The notes beneath the pieces are model-generated. The model worked only from the letters and a program-made list of their open reading frames with translations, was not told where the DNA came from and did not search any database. This document shows, one piece after another, positions 1 through 21,471 of a stretch of 29,223 bases of DNA; the first letter of the stretch is position 1, and the number at the start of each line of letters is the position of its first letter. Source of the stretch: a virus; UHGV virus genome UHGV-0364466; one strand, given 5' to 3'. A program made the position numbers and the translations under genes.

Positions 1-1427
1 ACATTAATACCAGACAATACATGACCTGACGGGCACTGGAAATTCCATGTTTGCCAGTTGTTCACTCCATAATATTGCTGTGAACCAAGTCGAACATCTT
101 TCACATATCTGGAATCAAAATTGCCATAGTTGCCGGGAATAACTTGCGCACCGCAAAGCCAGTTTCCGTTATTATCCATGTACGCCTGACCATCGGTGCC
201 ATTGGCTGTCCTTGAATTATTAATCATGTAGATGCCAAATTGCTTATTTCCCAGACCGCCAATCATAAATTTTCGGTCGGCATGGTCCTGACGGAGCAAG
301 GCCTGGGCGCTATCAGTGTTAACTATATTTTTCCCAAAGATAGCGTTGTTATCGCGCATCTGAATCCACATACCATTACCGCTGTTAATAGCAAAACGGT
401 TTGCAAATATATCCCCTGTAACATCAAGACCATGCCCCATAGTTATGCGACCAGTTCTAAGATTAAGCGTAAAGGGGCGTAGTGGTCCTATATCGCCATT
501 TTCCCCCTCATTTTCTCGGGTAGGGATGATATGAAGGCATTCTTCAGAACGGCGGAAAATGGCACCAAAAGATGAATTAAATATCCTCAGTGCATTGACT
601 GTCGATATTTTTACTTCACTGCTGAAAAGGGCTTTAACAAGAACATACAAAGCATCCCATTTAAGATTCATCAGGTCTTTTGTTGTGGTGCTTTGTTTGC
701 TTCTCCATTTGAAATATTCATTGCCGTTGTCGCCTGTTTCAAACCACATGTATGAATCAGTGTCGCTGTCGGCATCATTTTTAAACCCAATCTTTGCCCA
801 GTCAGTATTTCGAATCCAGGCAAGAATTGAGTCGTTTTCAAAAGTAAGTCCACCGGACAAGGTATCACCTGTCTTTTGAACAGCGTTACCAGCCTTGTTT
901 ACCGTTTCCTGTAAACCGAGGTTTTGGATAAACAGCGGCTTATTGGGAATATCTGCTCCGTTCCGGTCTTTTGCCAGACGGGCATTGGCATTATCCATCG
1001 CAATTTTCACCGCTTTTGCGGTGGCTGCCAGCGTTTCACTGGGGCTGTCAGTGGCACTGGTTAGCTGAACGAGTCCTTTTTTGTTCAGGCTGGCATCATA
1101 GATATCCAGATTTTCACGTGCTGTACGCTGTGCTGATGCCCCGGCAGTTTTAATTTCGCTGAGGTTATTTTTTATCAGCAGCGCGTTCTTGTTCATGATG
1201 GCTTTAATGGACAGTGCAAGCTGGTTTAATTTTGTTTTATCCGGTTGAATACCGGCTTCTTCCAGCGTGTTTAATAACTCCGCCTGCACAATATTAAACC
1301 AGTCCATGCCGGGCCATGTGATAACATTATTCCCGTCACCTTCTGAAAACCAGCGAACGATAGCACTACGCTGGGCGGATACGGGCGGCATGACGGTTAC
1401 GCCGCTGTCGTTATCAATATAAAACAT
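1..1427 (-). CDS. Tail fibre protein (Mu S-like), N-terminal ~475 codons; continues beyond window start
   Basis: Manual minus-strand translation from ATG at 1427..1425 (overlaps gp48 stop) is open to position 1: MFYIDNDSGVTVMPPVSAQRSAIVRWFSEGDGNN...GDTLSGGLTFENDS...; tail-fibre-like composition. Missing from the ORF track because it has no stop inside the window. Confidence 0.8.
   Translation of the reverse strand, partial: MFYIDNDSGVTVMPPVSAQRSAIVRWFSEGDGNNVITWPGMDWFNIVQAELLNTLEEAGIQPDKTKLNQLALSIKAIMNKNALLIKNNLSEIKTAGASAQRTARENLDIYDASLNKKGLVQLTSATDSPSETLAATAKAVKIAMDNANARLAKDRNGADIPNKPLFIQNLGLQETVNKAGNAVQKTGDTLSGGLTFENDSILAWIRNTDWAKIGFKNDADSDTDSYMWFETGDNGNEYFKWRSKQSTTTKDLMNLKWDALYVLVKALFSSEVKISTVNALRIFNSSFGAIFRRSEECLHIIPTRENEGENGDIGPLRPFTLNLRTGRITMGHGLDVTGDIFANRFAINSGNGMWIQMRDNNAIFGKNIVNTDSAQALLRQDHADRKFMIGGLGNKQFGIYMINNSRTANGTDGQAYMDNNGNWLCGAQVIPGNYGNFDSRYVKDVRLGSQQYYGVNNWQTWNFQCPSGHVLSGIN
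906..931. other. gix-type recombination site (Gin/Hin/Cin invertase crossover site) inside the tail-fibre gene
   Basis: Plus strand reads TTCCTGTAAACCGAGGTTTTGGATAA, which matches the Mu gix site as I recall it, with the AAACC-GA-GGTTT dyad core. It encodes LFIQNLGLQE of the fibre protein. Only one copy is in the window. Confidence 0.6.
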
Positions 1428-1969: not shown

Positions 1970-3042
1970 TCAATTGTCCCCGGTGTTAACAGTTCCGTAT
2001 TCTCCGAACGCTGGATCTCTGTCGGGAAACGCACTTCAAAATCATCCAGACCGGTAACACCTGCCACCGCACGGATAATACGGGAGGGGGCAAGTGCGCC
2101 GCCCGGCGTCACCTCATTAAAAAACATGGTATTAATGGCGTGGGTAATAGCCTGTTTCAGTTCGGCTGTCTTCGGTGATATATAAATCCGTGGATTTACC
2201 GGCTTTGCCTTTGGCGCAAATACAGTGACATTTACACCGTCAGGCTGTCCGACAATCAGACCGGTGATCGGGTCAGTATGACCGGCGATATAATCCGCCA
2301 CGCGTTCCACGTCTGCCGGTTGTGGAAAAATATTGCTCCGGTTATCCATAACAAACGTCACCCCGACTGTGCCACCACCTTTCCATGTCGGAAAACACCA
2401 GGCACGGGTAACGCCGCTGACTTCACGTGCCCAGCGAACGTAATCAAACTGATTACCGCCGAACGGAGGATACTGGACACGATATTCCAGCCGTGACAGC
2501 AGCTCAGCTGCACTCTCAATATCAGCCCCACCGGAAAACCCTTTTACAGTGATGGCATCGGAAACAACACAGGCAACCGGGGTGATCAACGTTAAAAGGG
2601 TATTCTCACCGGTATTTCCTGCCTCACCGGCAGCCAGTGCGGTAACGGTAATTTCCGTCGTTCCTGCACGGTCAATCACAATGGCATCAGCCAGGCTGTA
2701 AACCACACCATCAGCACGCTGCCAGCGTGTACCGGCAGGAATGGTGGTCGCTGCCGATGTGGTGACAGTCAGCGGGCCGCTGGCGGCTGTCGCCTGTTTG
2801 CGGCGCACCCCCCAGAACCGGCAGTGCTCCAGCAACTCATCTTCATCTGCTGTCGACGGGATAATCTGCCGTCCAACCCATGAAATATGCTCGTGACAAC
2901 CGGCAGCAAGGCCCGCCTGAGCATAAGCAATGGCACTCAGCGTTTTTTCACGGGCCTGAGGCCAGCTACCCGGCAGGCGCTGTTCAATATTCTGTTCTGT
3001 ACGGGCAATCAGCGATGATAATGTCGGTGGTGAATAAGCCAT
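1960..3042 (-). CDS. Baseplate J-like protein (Mu gp47)
   Basis: 360 aa; baseplate J family by sequence character and synteny; overlaps neighbours by a few nt. Confidence 0.85.
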   Translation of the reverse strand: MAYSPPTLSSLIARTEQNIEQRLPGSWPQAREKTLSAIAYAQAGLAAGCHEHISWVGRQIIPSTADEDELLEHCRFWGVRRKQATAASGPLTVTTSAATTIPAGTRWQRADGVVYSLADAIVIDRAGTTEITVTALAAGEAGNTGENTLLTLITPVACVVSDAITVKGFSGGADIESAAELLSRLEYRVQYPPFGGNQFDYVRWAREVSGVTRAWCFPTWKGGGTVGVTFVMDNRSNIFPQPADVERVADYIAGHTDPITGLIVGQPDGVNVTVFAPKAKPVNPRIYISPKTAELKQAITHAINTMFFNEVTPGGALAPSRIIRAVAGVTGLDDFEVRFPTEIQRSENTELLTPGTIEWL

Positions 3043-3480
3043 TTAAACCCCGTTAAATGCTGCTTTAAACTCATAAGGAATAACGGAACCATCCGGTAAT
3101 GTCAGTGCAATGTAGAGGTATAACCAGCCCTGATGTAACTGTTCCGCCCTGACGTTAATCGCACTTACCCGGCCCGCTGTTTTCAGCCATTCCAGCGACT
3201 CTTCGGCATACCCTCTGGCGCGTTCCAGCGTATCCGGTGTGGCTTTTTCACGTGATAACAGCCACAACCGCGAACCGATGGGGCGGTCGCGGTAACTGTC
3301 ACCCCACCATCCACGGCGATCATCTGAACCATCCGGCAGCGTGTCAGAATCCAGCGCGCGCCGGTCGGTAAACAGGGAGATTGTCACATCGGTTGTCAGG
3401 CTGTCGTCGGTCAGCATATCAATGCCATCCTGTGCAATATCGCCGCGTCCGTTCGTCCAGATAATGGCTAAATCGGTCAT
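3043..3480 (-). CDS. Baseplate protein, Mu gp46-like (GP46 / gp25-W-like)
   Basis: 145 aa, MTDLAIIWTNGRGDIAQDGIDMLTDDSLTTDV...; size and position typical. Confidence 0.8.
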   Translation of the reverse strand: MTDLAIIWTNGRGDIAQDGIDMLTDDSLTTDVTISLFTDRRALDSDTLPDGSDDRRGWWGDSYRDRPIGSRLWLLSREKATPDTLERARGYAEESLEWLKTAGRVSAINVRAEQLHQGWLYLYIALTLPDGSVIPYEFKAAFNGV

Positions 3481-4070
3481 TGCATTGGCCCCGTGGTTCC
3501 GCCGCTGTCGCCACGGTGGATATGCTTATCCGTCGATTTGCCATTGATGATGGCATCCGGGGCAGTAATATTGCTGTCGAACTGGCTTTTACCTTTAACG
3601 CCCAGACCTTTCTGGATCTCAACGTCGCCGGTAAACGTGGTTCTGGGTGTGTCAACGGTCATACTTTCATCAGCGTAAACCTCAACCGTTTTACAGGTAA
3701 TGATGCAGCGTCCGTCCTTTGTCAGCCTGATACGATGCCCCTCGTGGTGGTAAATGCCTGCATCACCCGGTTCAAGATTTGTCGGGCGGTAGCGGCGGTC
3801 TTCCACCACAACAGCAATCCCCTGATCACGTTGTGCGCCCACACAGGCAATCAGCGCCTCTGCGCCCGGCAGGGGAACGCTGAAATGCCCGTAATTTTGC
3901 AGGCGCTCCACTTCATCAGATTCCTCATCATCCAGCAGACCGACCTGCAGGTTCTGAACCTTTCGTCCGTCGTGAATCACGTTAACAACGGCGCGGGCCA
4001 CCATCAGCCGTACACGACGCATCAGCGGCATCAGCAGGCGGTTCAGGGCGGAATCATTTACTCTTTCCAT
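3477..4070 (-). CDS. Baseplate assembly protein V / spike (Mu gp45)
   Basis: 197 aa with gpV-like N-terminus (MRRVRLMVARAVVNVIHDGRKVQNLQV...) and Gly-rich C-terminus. Confidence 0.8.
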   Translation of the reverse strand: MERVNDSALNRLLMPLMRRVRLMVARAVVNVIHDGRKVQNLQVGLLDDEESDEVERLQNYGHFSVPLPGAEALIACVGAQRDQGIAVVVEDRRYRPTNLEPGDAGIYHHEGHRIRLTKDGRCIITCKTVEVYADESMTVDTPRTTFTGDVEIQKGLGVKGKSQFDSNITAPDAIINGKSTDKHIHRGDSGGTTGPMQ

Positions 4071-5191
4071 GGTGGTGTTTTCTCCGGGTGTCTGCGGAAA
4101 TAAGCCTCAACCAGATCATCAACGCCATCATTACCATCCCCTCTGGATTTGCGATCGCTTTCAACCGGCACCAGAAAGCCTTCGCGTGGTGCAAGGCTGA
4201 CGCGGGTTTTCAGCCCGTCCTGGTCATTCAGTATCAGGGTGACTTTGCTGACCAGTAATTCCGTGGTTTTGATGGCATATTTCGAGTCATCAATAGTGAC
4301 CAGCAGGTTCGGCATCCAGAGTTGCCCGTCCTTGCGAGTCCATCCGTCAATTTCTGCCTCAAAGGTGATGGATTTTGCCAGTCTGCGGCGTTGCTCACGC
4401 AGGGCGCGGGCCTGTGCATCCTTCGCAGTAATCTTGCTGTCAGCAATGATGATCATCGGTCTGTAACGGGTCACATCACTGTCAGTGGCGGTCCCTTTCC
4501 GGGAGACGATACTTTTCGCATCAATATCATCACCCTCAGCACCATTTGCGCGGGCATACCCCTTGACGGTGTATTCGCTGAACCGGTCGCGGAAGTCTTC
4601 CTCAAAATCCAGTGTCAGCAGATTTTCTCCGAGAACCAGCTCATCAGTGGCTGTGCTGGCAGCCCGGCTGAATACCAGCTCTCCGGCGGCATTGCTGGTC
4701 ATCAGTACACCGCGTGCGCGGGAGGCACGCACCAGCGCCTCATAAACGGTTTCTGAATGGTCCAGCGTGAAGCCGGGAAAAGCTGCCGAACTTTCCTTAT
4801 CGGAAAGCTCCCAGCGAACGGTAACGCCATAAGGGGCGCTCAGGTCACGCGCAATCTGCTCCAGTGTGCGGTTTTTCCACTGTCCGCCACTGTAAACGGC
4901 AGCACAGTCAATCAGGTCAGCCGTTTTGTCACGTCCGGCGATAGTGATTTTCATGCTGTCAGCGGTCATCTGGCGTCGCCGCGAATCGATATAACCGGTG
5001 CAGACAATCTGCCCGTCGATTTCCAGCGTGAACGCCTTCCCCGGTGCCAGCCCGGATAAATCTGTACCCGGTGGCACATTCACCCCCAGCTCAAAATATC
5101 CGGCTACGGATTCAATCGAGCGGGTGACAGAGACTGACGTCCAGCCGGTAAAAAGCCTGCCATCCGTTCGCAGCGTGACGGTATTACTCAT
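4058..5191 (-). CDS. Tail protein P (Mu gp44, P2 gpD-like baseplate hub)
   Basis: 377 aa, [35 protein letters not shown]...; position between N and gp45. Confidence 0.8.
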
Positions 5192-16806: not shown

Positions 16807-18325
16807 CCAGACGCCCCCATATATCGGCAACAAAAATGGCACGGGTCAGCATGTCGATAAGTTCTGCATCATCCATCTGCGGATATAATGAAGCGGCTTT
16901 GTTCATGGCGGCTTCCGGGCCATCTTTCAGCACAGAAAAAATGACGGGTTTCAGCAGGGGATCAACCGAACGCTGCCAGTCTTCCGGTGAGACGCCCATC
17001 CGGTCGATATCATCCTCCTGCGGGATATCTTCAGCGGATAATGCAGCCTCTTTCTGCGGACCGTTATCCATGACGACCGGTTGAGCAGTAAACACGGCTT
17101 CATCACCGACCGGCTGTGGAATATGAAGTTTTTCCTGTATCCAGGAGACCGGAATACGCATTCCCGCCGCCAGTTTCGGAATGGCGTCAGACAGTGCCGT
17201 AATATCACCCGCTTCACTGGTATCAAATACAATGCCCGGCAGGCGGTTAATATCAATGGTGCTGTCACTGTTCAGTGCCAGCAGGGGATAAATCAGATCA
17301 CGGTTAATACTGCGGGCAAGCTGGCCCACATCCGCGTTACGGATTTCCCGGCGAACCTCATCATGCACTTCACCCAGCGACCGCGCGCCTTTATCGCCAG
17401 CCTCTGTGGTCAGGGTGCCGCCCAGAATGGCTTTTGAAATCGCTTTTTCTGCCCAGCCAATCATCGCCATAAAAGGGTCTGACTGACCATCTGCGGCGCT
17501 CTGAAAATCCAGCGTCATCCCCATCGGAATAATGCCACCGGCACGTCGCCCGATATCCATCACGGCCTGCATCAGCGTGGCTTTCTCGCGGTTCGTTGAG
17601 CCGGTCGGATATTTACCGACGCGCATGGGGAGTCCGTAAATTTCCAGAAACTCTGCAAAATCACGCACGGAATAGTTTTTAAAAATAAAAGGCCAGATAA
17701 GCGTGCGCACAAGGCCATTGGTGCCGACATACCCGGTGCGGGATTTGGCCCGGTGCATAAACCAGCCGAACGGTTGCAGCTCCAGCCCGTGATAAGACGC
17801 ATCACGCAGGCGTAATTCGTTCAGATTGTCGGGGTTCGCGCAGAACAGCGCCGGATCGCGATGATGCAGCGCCACCGGCACGCGCATTTTCCCCAGCCAG
17901 CCCCATTCAATCTCCTGCATGGAATAGCCCTTGAGAATGGCATCACCGGCATCAAACAGGGCATCTTCAAACCACGCCGCATCATGCAGATATTCATTCA
18001 GCATGTCGGCGTCTTTTTTCTCCTGTGCGCTGGCATCACGTGCCGGAGCGATGCGCCATTCCAGCGCCTGAATGGCAAGGCGGCGTTTGCTCAGTTCGGA
18101 AAAAAGGTGGGTGTCCTTTTCTTCCATATCAAAGGCCAGGTCAGCCTGTGCTGTCAGATCACCGCGTTCGGCATCACGCAGCATCTGCGCGGCCCGGTTC
18201 GGCGTCACACCACTGGAAGGATGCTCCTGCGTACGCTTCATGACCATTGCCAGCTCATCGCTGCGGGTCTGCATTTCATCGTCAAAATCAAACGGCTGCC
18301 CGGAAATATCCAGAATACGGCCCAT
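16787..18325 (-). CDS. Portal protein H (Mu gp29, DUF935)
   Basis: 512 aa, MGRILDISGQPFDFDDEMQTRSDELAMVMKRTQEHP...; ATG verified; downstream of terminase. Confidence 0.9.
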   Translation of the reverse strand: MGRILDISGQPFDFDDEMQTRSDELAMVMKRTQEHPSSGVTPNRAAQMLRDAERGDLTAQADLAFDMEEKDTHLFSELSKRRLAIQALEWRIAPARDASAQEKKDADMLNEYLHDAAWFEDALFDAGDAILKGYSMQEIEWGWLGKMRVPVALHHRDPALFCANPDNLNELRLRDASYHGLELQPFGWFMHRAKSRTGYVGTNGLVRTLIWPFIFKNYSVRDFAEFLEIYGLPMRVGKYPTGSTNREKATLMQAVMDIGRRAGGIIPMGMTLDFQSAADGQSDPFMAMIGWAEKAISKAILGGTLTTEAGDKGARSLGEVHDEVRREIRNADVGQLARSINRDLIYPLLALNSDSTIDINRLPGIVFDTSEAGDITALSDAIPKLAAGMRIPVSWIQEKLHIPQPVGDEAVFTAQPVVMDNGPQKEAALSAEDIPQEDDIDRMGVSPEDWQRSVDPLLKPVIFSVLKDGPEAAMNKAASLYPQMDDAELIDMLTRAIFVADIWGRLDAAADH

Positions 18326-19980
18326 TACCAGCCCCCTCGTTCAAACTGGTGATAATCATCAAAATCATCGTTATCAACATCATCACCACGGTGGCGTGGT
18401 GGCAGCGCCTGTATGCTGTCCTCGTCGATAACAAAACCATTCATATAAGACGCTCTGACAGCCATACAGAGCGCCACGGCAAAGTCGCCATGTCGTCGGC
18501 CTTTACCGCCTTCATCTTTTGTGCGCCCCTTATCAATCTGCGGAATACCTTTGTCCACCTTGATATGGAGCAGGTCATCAAGTGTGGTCTGGTGCCGGGC
18601 AATCGTGATGTTCTGCGCTTCAAACTCGCCTTTCAGTTTTGGCATCCACTCCTGATACCAGGATGCGGTCAGATTCACACAGTCGATCATCTCCGGGCCA
18701 TAAATCAGACGGGCGGCTTCTGCCAGATAACCGCCGTTACCGGTGGCATCAAATGCAGCGCCGGTAAAACGGGGCAAACGGGACAGAATGAATAAAAGGA
18801 TTTGTCGCTGCTGGTCATAGGTCACATTACGCAGCTCCACGCGGAAACATTCGCGTTTGCGTAAGTCTGGAGTGATGGCAAGCGGCACAAACACCGTCAG
18901 GTCGCCACGGCGTGCAAAGTCTTCGCCCAGTACGTGTTTATTGAGCGGCGACAGCGCATCGAGCAACGGGAGCAGCTCCTGTTCACACCAGTCCTGAACG
19001 ATGCCGTGGCGCATTTGTGGTGTCAGCGATTCAAAATCGTCCGGGGCTTCAAAACGCAGAATCGGGATATCCCGCGCTGGCGTCATGGCGGCTTCAATCA
19101 GCACGCGTGACAGATAAGCGCCCCCGGATTTTTTAGGAATGCAGCCGTATTCCTCGTCGGCACTCTCTTTATTCGGCGCATTCCGGTACAAGCCATCACG
19201 CCAGGCTTTTTCCGCTTCCGGCGACCACGGCTGATTCGTGACGTAACAGATACGTCGGTACAACCCGTCAGCGATGGCATCATCCAGCGTGATGCGGTGA
19301 ACGCTGTAATCCTTGCGCCCCTCGCGCGCATCCTGAATGTACTGGTTAAACAGGTTATCGACGCCGTTATGTGTCGATATGATGCGCACGCTGGCACCCC
19401 ACATGTTTAGTGCAAAGGCCGCTTTCAGCAGTTCGTCCAGGGCTTCATGGAATGCCGCCTCATCAATCACCACGTCCCCCTGCAAACCACGCAGGTTAGA
19501 CGGGCGGCTTGACAGCGCCTGTATCTTAAATCCGCTGTTCGGAAAGCGGATCATGTAGGTGAGGATTTCTTCTTTTTTGTCGCTGTCCCAGAAGGTCTGC
19601 TCCCAGACGTCAGCCTTTGCCAGTTGGTTAAAGGCGCGGGCAAACAGGGCACAGGCGGCGATGTATTCCAGCGCCATTTCCTGACGGGAACCCACATAAA
19701 AGACGTTGCGACCACCGCGACGCTTCGGCTTTGCGGCCGTCATGACATTGCGGCCCGCTTCAGCCCATGTCAGACCGGTTCGACGGGATTTTTCAGCGAT
19801 GCAAATCTGGCTTTCATCCTCAAACCAGCGGCGCTGATAGCCCAGAAAAACCGGTTCATTGCGGGGCTGTGCTTCCCCGATATCGGTCACGATATTCACG
19901 CCGAGCAGTCCGGCTTCCTCACGCAGGTTGATTTTGCGGGGCGCATGAAGGGCTTTAAGTTTGCTTTCTCTGGTGCTCAC
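18325..19980 (-). CDS. Terminase large subunit (Mu gp28)
   Basis: 551 aa; Walker-B-like GDVVIDEAAF; position before portal. The first in-frame start is GTG at 19980 with no obvious SD, so the start is uncertain. Confidence 0.85.
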   Translation of the reverse strand: MSTRESKLKALHAPRKINLREEAGLLGVNIVTDIGEAQPRNEPVFLGYQRRWFEDESQICIAEKSRRTGLTWAEAGRNVMTAAKPKRRGGRNVFYVGSRQEMALEYIAACALFARAFNQLAKADVWEQTFWDSDKKEEILTYMIRFPNSGFKIQALSSRPSNLRGLQGDVVIDEAAFHEALDELLKAAFALNMWGASVRIISTHNGVDNLFNQYIQDAREGRKDYSVHRITLDDAIADGLYRRICYVTNQPWSPEAEKAWRDGLYRNAPNKESADEEYGCIPKKSGGAYLSRVLIEAAMTPARDIPILRFEAPDDFESLTPQMRHGIVQDWCEQELLPLLDALSPLNKHVLGEDFARRGDLTVFVPLAITPDLRKRECFRVELRNVTYDQQRQILLFILSRLPRFTGAAFDATGNGGYLAEAARLIYGPEMIDCVNLTASWYQEWMPKLKGEFEAQNITIARHQTTLDDLLHIKVDKGIPQIDKGRTKDEGGKGRRHGDFAVALCMAVRASYMNGFVIDEDSIQALPPRHRGDDVDNDDFDDYHQFERGGW

Positions 19981-20035
19981 GGGTGAAAAATCCGGTATAA
20001 ATTTTCAGGCATTAATCAGTAAAAAAGAGGTTTTT

Positions 20036-20230
20036 ATGAAAGAGAAACTGACCATTGATCAAAAAATCGAAATTGCCCGGATAGCCGTGCAAATGTTTGA
20101 ATCCACCCGGGCAAAAGGCGTTTCACTTGAGATCTCCTGTTCAGGAAAAGCATCAGTGGAAGAAAACACATTTAATGCTTTCTACAAAATTGTTGAAAAA
20201 ACCGTTATCGGTGGACCTGAGAATAACTGA
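20036..20230 (+). CDS. Hypothetical small protein (64 aa) on the opposite strand, between terminase genes
   Basis: ATG at 20036 preceded by AAAGAGG SD at 5 nt; MKEKLTIDQKIEIARIAVQMFESTRAKGVSLEISCSGKASVEENTFNAFYKIVEKTVIGGPENN; AT-rich surroundings; GC hairpin (GGCCCG-N7-CGGGCC) 6 nt after the stop. Confidence 0.5.
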   Translation: MKEKLTIDQKIEIARIAVQMFESTRAKGVSLEISCSGKASVEENTFNAFYKIVEKTVIGGPENN

Positions 20231-20402
20231 TCACCTGGCCCGCTGTAGCCGGGCCATCCACCAGTTGCATAACCAGATACAGGGCCTCGGCCATAATTCG
20301 TGGATGGACTTCCGGATCCTCATCAATCTGTTTTTTCACAACGGGCCACAGTGCCATTGCCAGTTCTGTTGAGGTCTTGTATTTAGTTTTTTCATCCGCC
20401 AT
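20205..20402 (-). CDS. Hypothetical small protein (65 aa)
   Basis: GAGGAG SD 6 nt before the second ATG (20402); MADEKTKYKTSTELAMALWPVVKKQIDEDPEVHPRIMAEALYLVMQLVDGPATAGQVISYSQVHR; 3' end overlaps the plus-strand gene by 26 nt. Confidence 0.45.
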   Translation of the reverse strand: MADEKTKYKTSTELAMALWPVVKKQIDEDPEVHPRIMAEALYLVMQLVDGPATAGQVISYSQVHR

Positions 20403-20412
20403 TTTCATCTCC

Positions 20413-20583
20413 TCAGGACAAAGTCCTTAGTTGTTTTATGGTCGTATGCCATGAATTGCCTGAAGCCATAGCCTGAACAAGCACATCCCGAATCTGGTGT
20501 ATCAACCGGACATCAGACAATGTTGCAATCCTGAAGGCTTTTTTATGGGCACTGATTAGCTGTGCTTTGTAATTATTTTTCAT
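20413..20583 (-). CDS. Hypothetical small protein (56 aa)
   Basis: ATG at 20583, 8 nt after the gp27 stop; MKNNYKAQLISAHKKAFRIATLSDVRLIHQIRDVLVQAMASGNSWHTTIKQLRTLS; weak SD. The upstream part of the 121-aa track ORF is out of frame with gp27 and rejected. Confidence 0.4.
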   Translation of the reverse strand: MKNNYKAQLISAHKKAFRIATLSDVRLIHQIRDVLVQAMASGNSWHTTIKQLRTLS

Positions 20584-20593
20584 AACGTAACGC

Positions 20594-21169
20594 CTACGCT
20601 TTCCCCAGCAGTACATCACGGATGCGCTGCTCCAGTTCTTCGCTGATGCCATCCTGCCCGCGCAGTTCTTCACTGACGGCGTTTGCCGCTTCTTCTGCGA
20701 ACGCCTGGCGGATTTCTTTCTCGCGCCGGTGGCTGGACATTGCTGTGGATTCCAGACGCTGTGCCGCCAGCATGGCATTTTTCAGCAGGTCAATATCCAC
20801 GTCAGATTCCGGGTTTTCGATTTGCCGCATCATGGCCTTAAAAAGCTGGCTGCGGGCCATTTCCAGAATCAGCTTTGTGGTTTCGCCCATTGGCTTGTCG
20901 CCAAGCTCTGCGGTCAGTGCTGACGTCATTTCACGCATCTGTCGCAGGTTATGGCCTACCTGCTCGACGTTCGTCGCGTAACGGTTCAGACCGGAACGGG
21001 AGAGTTTCATCTCATCCGGCAGGCCAGCGTCTTCAATCAGTGCGTTAATTTCTTCAAGAATACGGGCCTGTGGGATCGCCTTATCACGCAGCATTTCATG
21101 CAGCGTTTTACGTACGTTTTCCGGCAGTAAATCCACTTTTGAAGCCCGTCCCCGTGTTTTCCTGTCCAT
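20594..21169 (-). CDS. Mu gp27-like protein (DUF3486, putative small terminase subunit)
   Basis: Start moved to ATG 21169 (MDRKTRGRASKVDLLPENVRKTLHEML...) with AGGAGG SD at 5 nt; 191 aa. Confidence 0.8.
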   Translation of the reverse strand: MDRKTRGRASKVDLLPENVRKTLHEMLRDKAIPQARILEEINALIEDAGLPDEMKLSRSGLNRYATNVEQVGHNLRQMREMTSALTAELGDKPMGETTKLILEMARSQLFKAMMRQIENPESDVDIDLLKNAMLAAQRLESTAMSSHRREKEIRQAFAEEAANAVSEELRGQDGISEELEQRIRDVLLGKA

Positions 21170-21180
21170 CACGCCTCCTG

Positions 21181-21471
21181 TCATGCACGGGGACGCGGAC
21201 GCTTGACACCGGCAATGCGGGCACGGCCTTCCGCCACATCCTGACCACGGGAGGTCAGCGTTACGACATAAAAGCCGCGCAGGTTTTCCACGGTGACCAG
21301 TTGCTGCTCTGCCAGCCAGTCAATCTGGCCGCGAACCACATCACGGGAAACGTTGTGTCCGTATGCATCCAGACAGTCCTGAAGGATGGATTCGTTGGCT
21401 TCGTTATTGCAGTCCATCAGGGAACGCAGGATGACCAGACGACGGTCTTCGGTCAGAATATCGTTAATCAT
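21181..21471 (-). CDS. Mu gp26-position hypothetical protein
   Basis: 96 aa; ATG verified; ATGA-type overlap with gp25 stop. Confidence 0.6.
   Translation of the reverse strand: MINDILTEDRRLVILRSLMDCNNEANESILQDCLDAYGHNVSRDVVRGQIDWLAEQQLVTVENLRGFYVVTLTSRGQDVAEGRARIAGVKRPRPRA

Follow-up and report, generated by a model that had tools for sequence, protein, structure and literature searches.

[quoted passage not shown] What occupies this junction, and what could it do for the phage that carries it? The original prediction described an interval of about 600 bp, AT-richer than both neighbors, with three small ORFs, and proposed a small regulatory unit, a toxin-antitoxin-like unit, or a moron.

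An insertion between the terminase genes

19981 to 20593, no strand assigned: accessory cassette, low-GC, 613 bp, filling the gp27(terS)/gp28(terL) junction
20594 to 21169/21184, minus strand: gp27, small terminase (DUF3486 / Phage_Mu_Gp27), upstream flank; PF11985 at 1.4e-52
18325 to 19980, minus strand: gp28, large terminase (TerL), downstream flank; GTG start; DNA about 96% identical to that of Mu gene 28

Both flanks are of the Mu type. The gp27 protein has 100% amino-acid identity to Mu gp27 (tblastn), and Mu gene 28, the DNA match of TerL, carries the annotation terminase large subunit. In the junction comparison, Mu gene 27 and gene 28 are separated by GAGGGTT, and D108 and SfMu have the same 7-nt spacing, as do 31 of 44 complete E. 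coli genomes with a match to this Mu-type junction. We inspected six further phages with a DUF3486-type terS, and terS and terL abut or overlap in the five that are annotated. The sixth, an unannotated Stx1 Mu-like insert, contained no insert ORFs at the junction. The GC content of the cassette is 0.37-0.47 versus 0.53-0.60 in the flanks, in agreement with the predicted AT-rich character. The same cassette is present in E. coli RM8082 with 98.9% identity. The 613-bp interval is an insertion between genes that are adjacent in Mu relatives.

The sequence bordering terL is conserved among the insert classes. TerL initiates at GTG, and the upstream sequence (...CCGGAUUUUUCACCC) confirms that it has no Shine-Dalgarno (SD) motif, as was originally noticed. 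According to the junction comparison, the cassette has replaced the Mu-type terL SD and the translational coupling to gp27. The question then is by what means terL is translated once the Mu-type ribosome-binding site and the coupling have been replaced.

Three protein-coding genes in the cassette

20413 to 20583, minus strand: gene C, 56 aa, co-directional with the late operon; ATG 10 nt past the gp27 stop
20205 to 20402, minus strand: gene B, 65 aa, MADEK start, co-directional with the late operon; phrog_21398 at 5.9e-39
20409 to 20414, minus strand: SD of gene B, GAGGAG, 6 nt upstream of the B ATG; overlaps the C stop TGA (20413 to 20415)
20036 to 20230, plus strand: gene A, 64 aa, opposite in orientation to the late operon; matches phrog_25148
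20024 to 20030, plus strand: SD of gene A, AAAGAGG; motif conserved across lineages

The two minus-strand ORFs and the plus-strand ORF are as originally described in length, strand, and SD motif. Genes A and B are convergent, and their 3' ends overlap by the predicted 26 nt (20205 to 20230). A 67-aa version of B starting at 20408 is unlikely because the homologues begin with MA(D/N/E)EK. The C stop overlaps the B start in Mixta and RM8082, and B and C appear to be translationally coupled to gp27.

The alignment to Mu-like genomes, suggested as a check, showed that the ORFs are absent from Mu, D108, and SfMu and conserved in Salmonella, Erwinia, Mixta, and Apirhabdus. The Mu-like prophages of these four genera share the C-B-A order at the same junction, again with A and B overlapping by 26 nt. 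What is conserved across genera is the ORFs themselves, and the picture of a conserved non-coding leader lacking ORF conservation was not found. Synonymous sites are saturated and non-synonymous change is low. For A, the comparison between the window and Mixta gave pS 0.88 and pN 0.23, and for B omega was 0.11-0.35 against Tongde, Mixta, Apirhabdus, and SE11. The C ORF is retained in RM8082, in nine E. coli genomes without A and B, and in Yersinia phage Tongde, where the reading frame is preserved through in-frame indels. The window-type C and the Mixta/Salmonella-type C align with an hhalign probability of 93.5% (E 2.3e-7). Judged from these substitution patterns, A, B, and C are under purifying selection and evolve as proteins, and their conservation at the junction in several genera indicates that the three ORFs are real genes, beyond chance.

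The three families are currently annotated only as hypothetical proteins. None of them has a match in Pfam, NCBIfam, or PADLOC, and in PHROGs A and B match families of unknown function only. For C, four of eight members weakly match phrog_220 ('minor head protein and DNA pilot'). Among PDB sequence profiles nothing was found for A, while B resembled designed armadillo-repeat proteins and C a designed tandem-repeat protein. These repeat-protein matches are not homology, because the scores are summed over repeats and no single stretch passes the threshold. The AlphaFold2 models, both of medium confidence, have two helices in A (residues 7-26 and 41-58, pLDDT 69) and three helices in B (pLDDT 68), and neither matched the PDB in Foldseek at E<=0.001. 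The B profile found just 7 representatives among 1.84 billion proteins, and thus there are no distant annotated relatives to rely on. A had no match in 50,697 deposited phage genomes (tblastn, E<=1) and was found only in prophages or uncultivated viral contigs. The literature search on the RefSeq accessions of the A, B, and C proteins found no paper.

Conservation and candidate expression signals of gene A

Residues 1-17 of A are near-invariant, with a mean identity of 86%, although synonymous sites in the same segment are saturated. In codons 1-17, pN is 0-0.11 with pS of 0.3-1.0, and the pair L023 and L024 differs there by 10 synonymous and 0 non-synonymous changes. The body of A is hypervariable, with a mean identity of 30% and at least six types, each of which is under purifying selection (omega about 0.3). 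As judged from the alignments, this pattern of conservation is the evolutionary signature of a specificity determinant. We also considered the N-terminus of A as a double-glycine leader and dropped the idea; the segment has no GG motif and is predicted to be a continuous helix.

19996 to 20001, plus strand: candidate -10 element of gene A, TATAAA, assigned from its position

The motif (A/G)AGAGG is kept 5-7 nt before the A ATG in all five aligned lineages, while the remaining leader diverges. Further upstream, about 35 nt before the ATG, a -10-like hexamer (TATAAA, GATAAT, GATAAG, or GGTAAG) is found in the window, SE11, Mixta, Apirhabdus, and L016 lineages, and by eye one is also present in the A-terL spacers of L022-L024. 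The element is weak and positionally conserved, and we regard it as a candidate promoter element. A consensus sigma-70 scan upstream of A found no promoter in the window, SE11, or Mixta loci. The same scan of Pseudomonas aeruginosa Mu-like phage JBD26 found nothing upstream of its tab gene on the tab strand either, though tab is reported to have its own promoter (PMC10884400), which serves as a loose sensitivity check, the text of that paper giving no promoter coordinates.

20238 to 20256, no strand assigned: GC hairpin GGCCCG-N7-CGGGCC, 7 nt past the A stop, within the 3' part of the B coding sequence

The original prediction had the hairpin itself right and its position 2 nt too far to the left. 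The predicted folding energies are -16.4 kcal/mol for the plus strand and -21 kcal/mol for the minus strand. In the window/RM8082, SE11-type (L004, L019), Mixta, Apirhabdus, and L016/L017 lineages, the codons that form the stem (GGC CCG .. .. GCG GGC C) do not vary even at synonymous sites, and the stem is broken in the A-less phage Tongde and in L028. There is no U-tract after the hairpin, and therefore it is not a canonical intrinsic terminator. On the plus strand, the terminator scan gave two terminator-like matches, which is within chance expectation. On the minus (late) strand the scan gave no terminator-like site in the cassette, leaving the way to terL open for late transcription. Gene A is embedded between gp27-C-B and terL, and this anatomy fits a noncontiguous operon, in which the late transcript would overlap A in antisense.

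By the Hendrix/Juhala definition as summarized in PMC4378225, the cassette reads as a moron, and this part of the original prediction is supported: it is extra DNA of deviant, lower-GC composition between genes adjacent elsewhere, at a place where Mu, D108, SfMu, and 31 of 44 E. coli genomes have 7 nt. As in classical morons, at least one gene (A) is positioned for independent transcription. Unlike classical morons, the cassette is a three-gene unit with two of its genes on the transcript of the host operon, and its promoter and terminator are putative, a -10-like element and a hairpin that lacks a U-tract.

Co-occurrence of A and B

B was present in every A-bearing locus inspected. The loci with both genes are the window, RM8082, the SE11 type, L007-L012, L016-L020, L022-L024, L028, and L029; L027, a 98% A match, was left out of this inspection. 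In IMG/VR, the 7 contigs with B are the same 7 contigs that have A. Phage Tongde and E. albertii have B but no A, and a leftover piece of the A 3' end there indicates that A was deleted. C occurs alone in the nine E. coli genomes mentioned above. With A never alone, and B or C persisting without it, the loss order is the one expected if A, in the absence of B, harms the phage. The sample is small (tens of loci, about 9 lineages), and the linkage alone explains part of the co-occurrence because A and B physically overlap. The sequence distances of A and B, compared in a mirror-tree style, showed no significant co-variation (Spearman rho 0.25).

Resemblance to prophage defense modules

The layout of the cassette fits the prophage defense and self-immunity modules described in 2024-2025 (Tab/anti-Tab, Tai/Ati, and TerI/anti-TerI) better than a classical toxin-antitoxin system. 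The closest arrangement is that of Tab/anti-Tab in JBD26 (Patel et al., Nat Commun 2024, PMC10884400). Tab targets the tape-measure protein and blocks tail assembly of the invader, and the antidote binds the defense protein (PMC10884400). In JBD26, tab (83 aa) occupies the space between terS and terL in the opposite orientation, and the gene next to terS on the late strand is atab; the two convergent genes overlap by 47 nt, and past the tab stop there is a hairpin within atab. Like Tab, A is small, predicted to be helical, opposite to the late operon, and next to terL. Like anti-Tab, the partner directly follows terS on the late strand, here with C 10 nt past gp27 and then B. The convergent 3' overlap (26 nt for A/B) is also shared, and so is a GC hairpin that lies past the opposite-strand stop codon and within the coding sequence of the partner. 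The proteins differ in size, being 64, 65, and 56 aa for A, B, and C versus 83 and 83 aa, and most lineages have three genes instead of two. Homology to Tab or anti-Tab was rejected for all three proteins, as their family profiles gave hhalign probabilities below 1% against Tab (YP_010299225) and anti-Tab (gp30). Orthologous synteny was also rejected, the JBD26 terminases having no BLASTP similarity to Mu gp27 and gp28. Tab homologues are reported only in close relatives of JBD26 (PMC10884400).

The gene number is closer to that of TERi (TerI / anti-TerI1 / anti-TerI2) in the Listeria monocytogenes comK prophage phi10403S (bioRxiv 10.1101/2025.02.27.640495). There the TerI gene, orf65 (8.3-kDa product), is reported to be transcribed constitutively on the opposite strand within the lytic operon, and induction switches on two co-directional self-immunity genes. 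TerI reportedly acts on virion production, binding TerS and blocking packaging (bioRxiv 10.1101/2025.02.27.640495). By gene number and orientation, the cassette likewise has one opposite-strand gene and two co-directional genes (A versus B and C). Unlike TERi, which sits in the early lytic module of a Gram-positive siphovirus, it sits at the terS/terL junction in a Mu-type late operon. No similarity of A was detectable, as judged indirectly from the A tblastn search of the 50,697 phage genomes and not against the TerI sequence.

Tai/Ati is found in phage phi80, related prophages, PICIs, and P4-like satellites, and occurs in E. coli and Salmonella prophages (Nat Commun 2024, PMC11364771). It is a noncontiguous operon in which immunity is constitutive and counter-defense is lytic-only, and Tai targets the central tail fibre or tail assembly (PMC11364771). 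The cassette shares with it an opposite-orientation gene that interrupts the late operon carrying its counter-defense gene, putative in the present case. The genomic position and the proteins are different, and the two systems are set apart by description.

Proposed function of the cassette

We hypothesize that A is a defense protein made by the prophage and that B, perhaps with C, is its late-expressed antidote. This analogy-based reading is a real possibility that we hold at somewhat less than even chance. The arrangement would be a prophage defense with linked self-immunity in a noncontiguous operon. A would be transcribed in the lysogen from its own promoter, on the strand opposite to the late operon. 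The 64-aa helical protein would act on superinfecting related phages at a late step, stopping virion assembly or DNA packaging. C and B would be made only once the prophage enters late lytic development, because both directly follow gp27 on the late transcript. B, possibly aided by C, would then bind and neutralize A, allowing the carrier phage to assemble. The invariant N-terminal helix of A may be the antidote handle and the hypervariable body the target-specificity part, and C is possibly a second self-immunity or accessory protein. We infer the expression of A in the lysogen, its defense activity, its target, and the A-B binding.

It is rather unlikely that the functions in the cassette are unlinked, with B and C as non-essential late proteins that adjust packaging or head assembly together with terminase and A an unrelated lysogenic-conversion moron that alters host physiology. 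B and C do lie between terS and terL with apparent translational coupling to gp27, C weakly matches the head protein and DNA pilot PHROG, and both genes occur without A. However, A has never been seen without B, and their 26-nt overlap is conserved across genera. Mu and most of its close relatives package normally without B or C, and the hypervariable A body points to an arms-race target, not to a housekeeping target in the host.

The toxin-antitoxin reading was carried over from the original prediction, and it stands loosely, in that A needs B for co-occurrence. As an addiction system, one small protein would be toxic to the host and the other would neutralize it, stabilizing the prophage or aborting infection by host killing. 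The inseparable pair with asymmetric loss, in which B can be alone and A cannot, would suit such a system, and many toxin-antitoxin systems consist of small proteins. The classical form does not hold up, as A and B are convergent genes in a late operon and not the co-directional bicistronic operon of type II systems, and Pfam, NCBIfam, and PADLOC gave no toxin or antitoxin match for the proteins. B, if late-only, could not protect the lysogen from a constitutive toxin, and A has no membrane segment or other feature of a type I toxin. We consider this explanation improbable.

Slightly less probable still is a counter-defense role, in which B and/or C act against host or rival-prophage immunity and A regulates them by antisense transcription or in a repressor-like manner. 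The convergent overlap would permit antisense control, the junction is an accessory-gene hotspot with fast-evolving small proteins, and B is an 'orphan' in a lytic-competent isolate, phage Tongde. But the timing of the late operon would be too late against DNA-targeting immunity, and A has no DNA-binding domain detectable in Pfam, NCBIfam, or fold searches. The variable partner is A and not B, the opposite of what would be expected of a B that tracks diverse immune targets.

A purely regulatory unit, as also proposed originally, is not supported, nor is a non-coding one, because all three ORFs evolve as proteins. That the interval is a leader or remnant whose ORFs are not expressed as proteins, with transcriptional interference with terL being what matters, is very improbable: terL has lost its SD and uses GTG, and the terL-proximal sequence is conserved among the insert classes, but the A and B frames are under strong protein-level constraint with pN far below saturated pS, the SD motif is conserved, and the C frame is preserved through indels.

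Implications for Mu-like phages

Defenses that allow infection to proceed but sabotage virion assembly, and that are paired with an antidote of the carrier, have been described only in 2024-2025, with a handful of examples. If A is such a defense protein and B its antidote, function would be assigned to three families that are now hypothetical. A may, in a reading that we hold slightly more tentatively than the proposal for the cassette itself, be the founder of a previously unrecognized prophage defense family of 61-71 aa in Enterobacterales Mu-like phages, built from a handle and a swappable body. Members of the A family would stop virion assembly or DNA packaging of rival phages, and their conserved N-terminal helix would serve the conserved late-expressed antidote B. 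The search for such systems would gain a homology-free signature, namely a small gene on the opposite strand that converges on a small gene after terS. Mu is a long-established E. coli model, in which identifying targets, selecting escape mutants, and solving structures would be straightforward. The terS/terL junction of transposable phages would be a slot convergently used for defense with self-immunity, where Muvirus relatives carry the A-B-C cassette and Casadabanvirus carries Tab/anti-Tab, unrelated to it in sequence. The strategy, and even its genomic slot, would then have arisen independently in relatives of Mu.

Organization of the terminase junction

The late genes of the window, a Mu-type prophage, lie on the minus strand. 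Phage Mu has just 7 nt between the gene 27 (gp27, small terminase) stop and the gene 28 (large terminase) ATG, and these, GAGGGTT, form the gene 28 SD. Here the interval measures 613 bp (19981..20593), with a GC content of 0.37-0.47 versus 0.53-0.60 in the flanks. The original prediction of three ORFs at this junction was confirmed, with positions needing 2-nt corrections, and the large terminase indeed has a GTG start and no SD. The features, from the gp27 side, are as follows.

20594..21184, minus: gp27, small terminase (PF11985 Phage_Mu_Gp27, 1.4e-52); protein 100% identical to Mu gp27
20413..20583, minus: gene C, 56 aa; no clear ribosome-binding site; ATG 10 nt past the gp27 stop
20205..20402, minus: gene B, 65 aa; GAGGAG at 20409..20414 overlaps the TGA of C
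20238..20256: hairpin GGCCCG-N7-CGGGCC, within the 3' coding part of B
20036..20230, plus: gene A, 64 aa; AAAGAGG at 20024..20030
18325..19980, minus: large terminase, 551-aa ORF; DNA about 96% identical to Mu gene 28

Genes A and B are convergent and overlap by 26 nt. In E. coli RM8082 (L002), RefSeq annotates A as an 83-aa protein (2999..3250) from an ATG overlapping the large terminase start codon. The window has ACG in place of this ATG, so it is the downstream ATG with the SD that is the conserved start of A. The C of RM8082 (3412..3603) has 63 aa and overlaps the B start; the window C stops 7 codons sooner. With the insertion, the GAGGG ribosome-binding site of Mu was lost, as was the coupling to gp27 across 7 nt. 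The GTG start (19978..19980) is preceded by ...CCGGAUUUUUCACCC without an SD (minus-strand leader 19981..20010), and the Salmonella and Erwinia versions share the U-rich leader 'UUUUUCAC'.

We surveyed 44 complete E. coli genomes with this Mu-type junction, which fell into four classes.

Junction classes in E. coli genomes
No insert: 31/44
274-bp insert, only C kept: 9/44
437-bp insert (SE11 type), divergent convergent pair A'/B' without C: 3/44
613-bp cassette of the window: 1/44 (RM8082, 98.9% identity)

We compared six further phages whose small terminase is of the DUF3486 type, five annotated and one unannotated. The two terminase genes adjoin or overlap in all five annotated phages (Pseudoalteromonas HS6, Vibrio ZX4290, Vibrio 1.028.O, Pseudomonas Fc02, and Pseudomonas JD18), and in the unannotated one, a Mu-like insert carried by an Stx1 phage, no insert ORFs follow the small terminase gene. 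Judged from these sequences, tight coupling of the terminase genes is the rule, from which the cassette departs. The cassette is almost certainly a real, conserved, horizontally acquired three-gene accessory unit.

Conservation of A, B, and C

The full C-B-A order, with the same 26-nt A/B overlap at the same junction, is found in Mu-like prophages of five further lineages (Mixta intestinalis, Apirhabdus apintestini, two Salmonella enterica, and one Erwinia-associated) and also in IMG/VR contigs. Between the window and Mixta, gene A shows synonymous differences (pS) of 0.88, which is saturated, and non-synonymous differences (pN) of 0.23. For gene B, omega is 0.11-0.35 across all comparisons. 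Gene C is under weaker constraint (omega 0.45, Mixta versus Apirhabdus); its frame is kept despite a 6-bp insertion in Yersinia phage Tongde, and the window-type C is homologous to the Mixta/Salmonella type (hhalign 93.5%, E 2.3e-7). The SD of A is kept in every lineage, and the leader around it diverges. By these measures of conservation, the three ORFs are genes.

The family is small. Word-index homology searches gave eight clusters for B, five for A, and three for C, a B profile search of 1.84 billion proteins gave only seven representatives, and tblastn of A against 50,697 phage genomes gave no match. Some carriers appear degraded or misassembled: in A. apintestini (L012, CP138906) B is frameshifted (4173..4370) and no calls exist for the large terminase, portal, and gp27; L011 has a split gp27 (4547..5128), and in L020 B and the large terminase are truncated (3001..3600).

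Sequence evolution of A and B

Residues 1-17 of A (MKEKLTIDQKIEIA.IA) have a mean identity of 86%, with pN 0-0.11 at pS 0.3-1.0; two loci (L023 and L024) differ there by 10 synonymous and no non-synonymous changes. Beyond residue 17 the mean identity is 30% and at least six types occur; within one type the body is under purifying selection (omega about 0.3). B is conserved more evenly than A (mean identity 59%), and A and B sequence distances showed no co-variation. One metagenome contig (L028, ERZ1034992 NODE-20523, 386..890) carries a recombinant cassette: the first two-thirds of its B is of SE11 type (89% identity, residues 1-38), the C-terminal third of B and the A body are new, and it has no GC hairpin. 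This pattern points to breakpoints past A codon 17 and within B, and suggests that a contiguous A body plus B tail was swapped as a unit.

In the window/RM8082, SE11-type, Mixta, Apirhabdus, and L016/L017 versions, no synonymous site of the hairpin stem codons (GGC CCG .. .. GCG GGC C) varies; elsewhere the same B genes differ at synonymous sites (pS 0.64-0.68). The stem is broken in Tongde, which lacks A. Thus, the hairpin is probably under selection, though not in all lineages. It is no canonical terminator, since it has no U-tract. A weak terminator-like site lies between C and B (20415..20427, plus; AGGAC-AAA-GTCCT then TAGTTGTTTT), and the A transcript would cross the whole of B antisense if it were used. 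The number of plus-strand terminator-like sites is within chance expectation, and this stem is not kept in RM8082, L003, or Tongde. A consensus promoter scan for A found none; this negative weighs little because the same simple scan finds none upstream of tab, on its strand, in Pseudomonas phage JBD26.

Proposed function of the cassette

For this cassette, gene layout offers the informative comparison. Mu-like phage JBD26 encodes the Tab/anti-Tab pair. Tab is reported to have its own promoter, to be made by the prophage, and to stop tail assembly of invading phages via their tape-measure protein; the gene for anti-Tab, which inactivates Tab by binding it, comes right after that of the small terminase on the late transcript (PMC10884400). 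In the JBD26 record, atab and tab converge, overlapping by 47 nt, and past the tab stop, within atab, lies a GC hairpin. The window cassette shows the same layout at the same functional junction. By sequence, the cassette does not belong with Tab (hhalign probability below 1% in every pairing), and even the JBD26 terminases lack BLASTP similarity to their Mu counterparts. The relation is one of analogy, not homology. The C-termini of the A family (window 20212..20230) form an acidic tail, [DG][EGT]P[ED]xx (GGPENN, GEPEHE, DEPEQN, DTPDHCE). Tab ends similarly in PDPEDS (L021 1583..1603), a resemblance too short for a homology call, and in both systems the tail is encoded in the partner-overlapping segment. 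Comparable layouts have been described in two other systems. TERi of Listeria has one small opposite-strand defence gene and two co-directional self-immunity genes, and is reported to halt DNA packaging through TerS binding (bioRxiv 10.1101/2025.02.27.640495). Tai/Ati of phi80 is described as a noncontiguous operon in E. coli and Salmonella prophages (PMC11364771).

By analogy, we tentatively propose that the cassette may provide defence plus self-immunity. A would be a defence protein that is produced in the lysogen and acts against rival phages at a late step; its antidote, expressed late, would be B, possibly with C. As plausible roles within A, the invariant N-terminal helix could serve as antidote handle and the variable body as specificity determinant.

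B was found at every A-bearing locus inspected, namely the window, RM8082, the SE11 type, L007-L012, L016-L020, L022-L024, L028, and L029, and A never occurred without B among them; metagenome locus L027, retrieved as a 98% A match, lies outside this set. Retrieval of IMG/VR contigs by B and by A gave the same seven. B outlives A in some loci, and C outlives both. B and C occur without A in Tongde and in E. albertii prophages, where a recognisable remnant of the A 3' end shows its deletion. This dependence of A on B, read here from sequence occurrence, matches what the Tab authors obtained experimentally: atab single deletions were not obtainable, and the tab and atab double deletion was viable (PMC10884400). 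The loci form a series of stepwise decay, from A+B+C to B+C to C only, versus none in Mu (L001 Tongde 3282..3697; L003 3928..4201; L025 1300..1740). In the C-only state, an internal deletion in B joins its start region to the hairpin region, and PGAP leaves the surviving C ORF unannotated in nine E. coli genomes.

It is unlikely that B and C are unlinked late accessory proteins and A an unrelated moron. A host-killing addiction module is distinctly improbable, and a set of counter-defence genes with A as regulator slightly more so. Family, domain, and fold searches gave no match that assigns function, and a literature search found no paper mentioning these proteins. Among PDB entries, the B-family profile scores on armadillo-repeat proteins of consensus design, with a best E of 8e-6, and the matched part is B residues about 18-52 (..P.V....D.P.V....AEALYL.MQ.V.GP); because no single stretch passes alone, the score may reflect helical-repeat-like composition rather than homology. 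C has a weak but recurring match to phrog_220, labelled 'minor head protein and DNA pilot', at positions 918-969 (4/8 family members, best E 8e-5). That the interval is non-coding can practically be dismissed.

If the defence and self-immunity mechanism is true, the cassette would add a new variant, unrelated in sequence, to a kind of system defined recently. Its carriers are relatives of the model phage Mu, which makes it easy to test.
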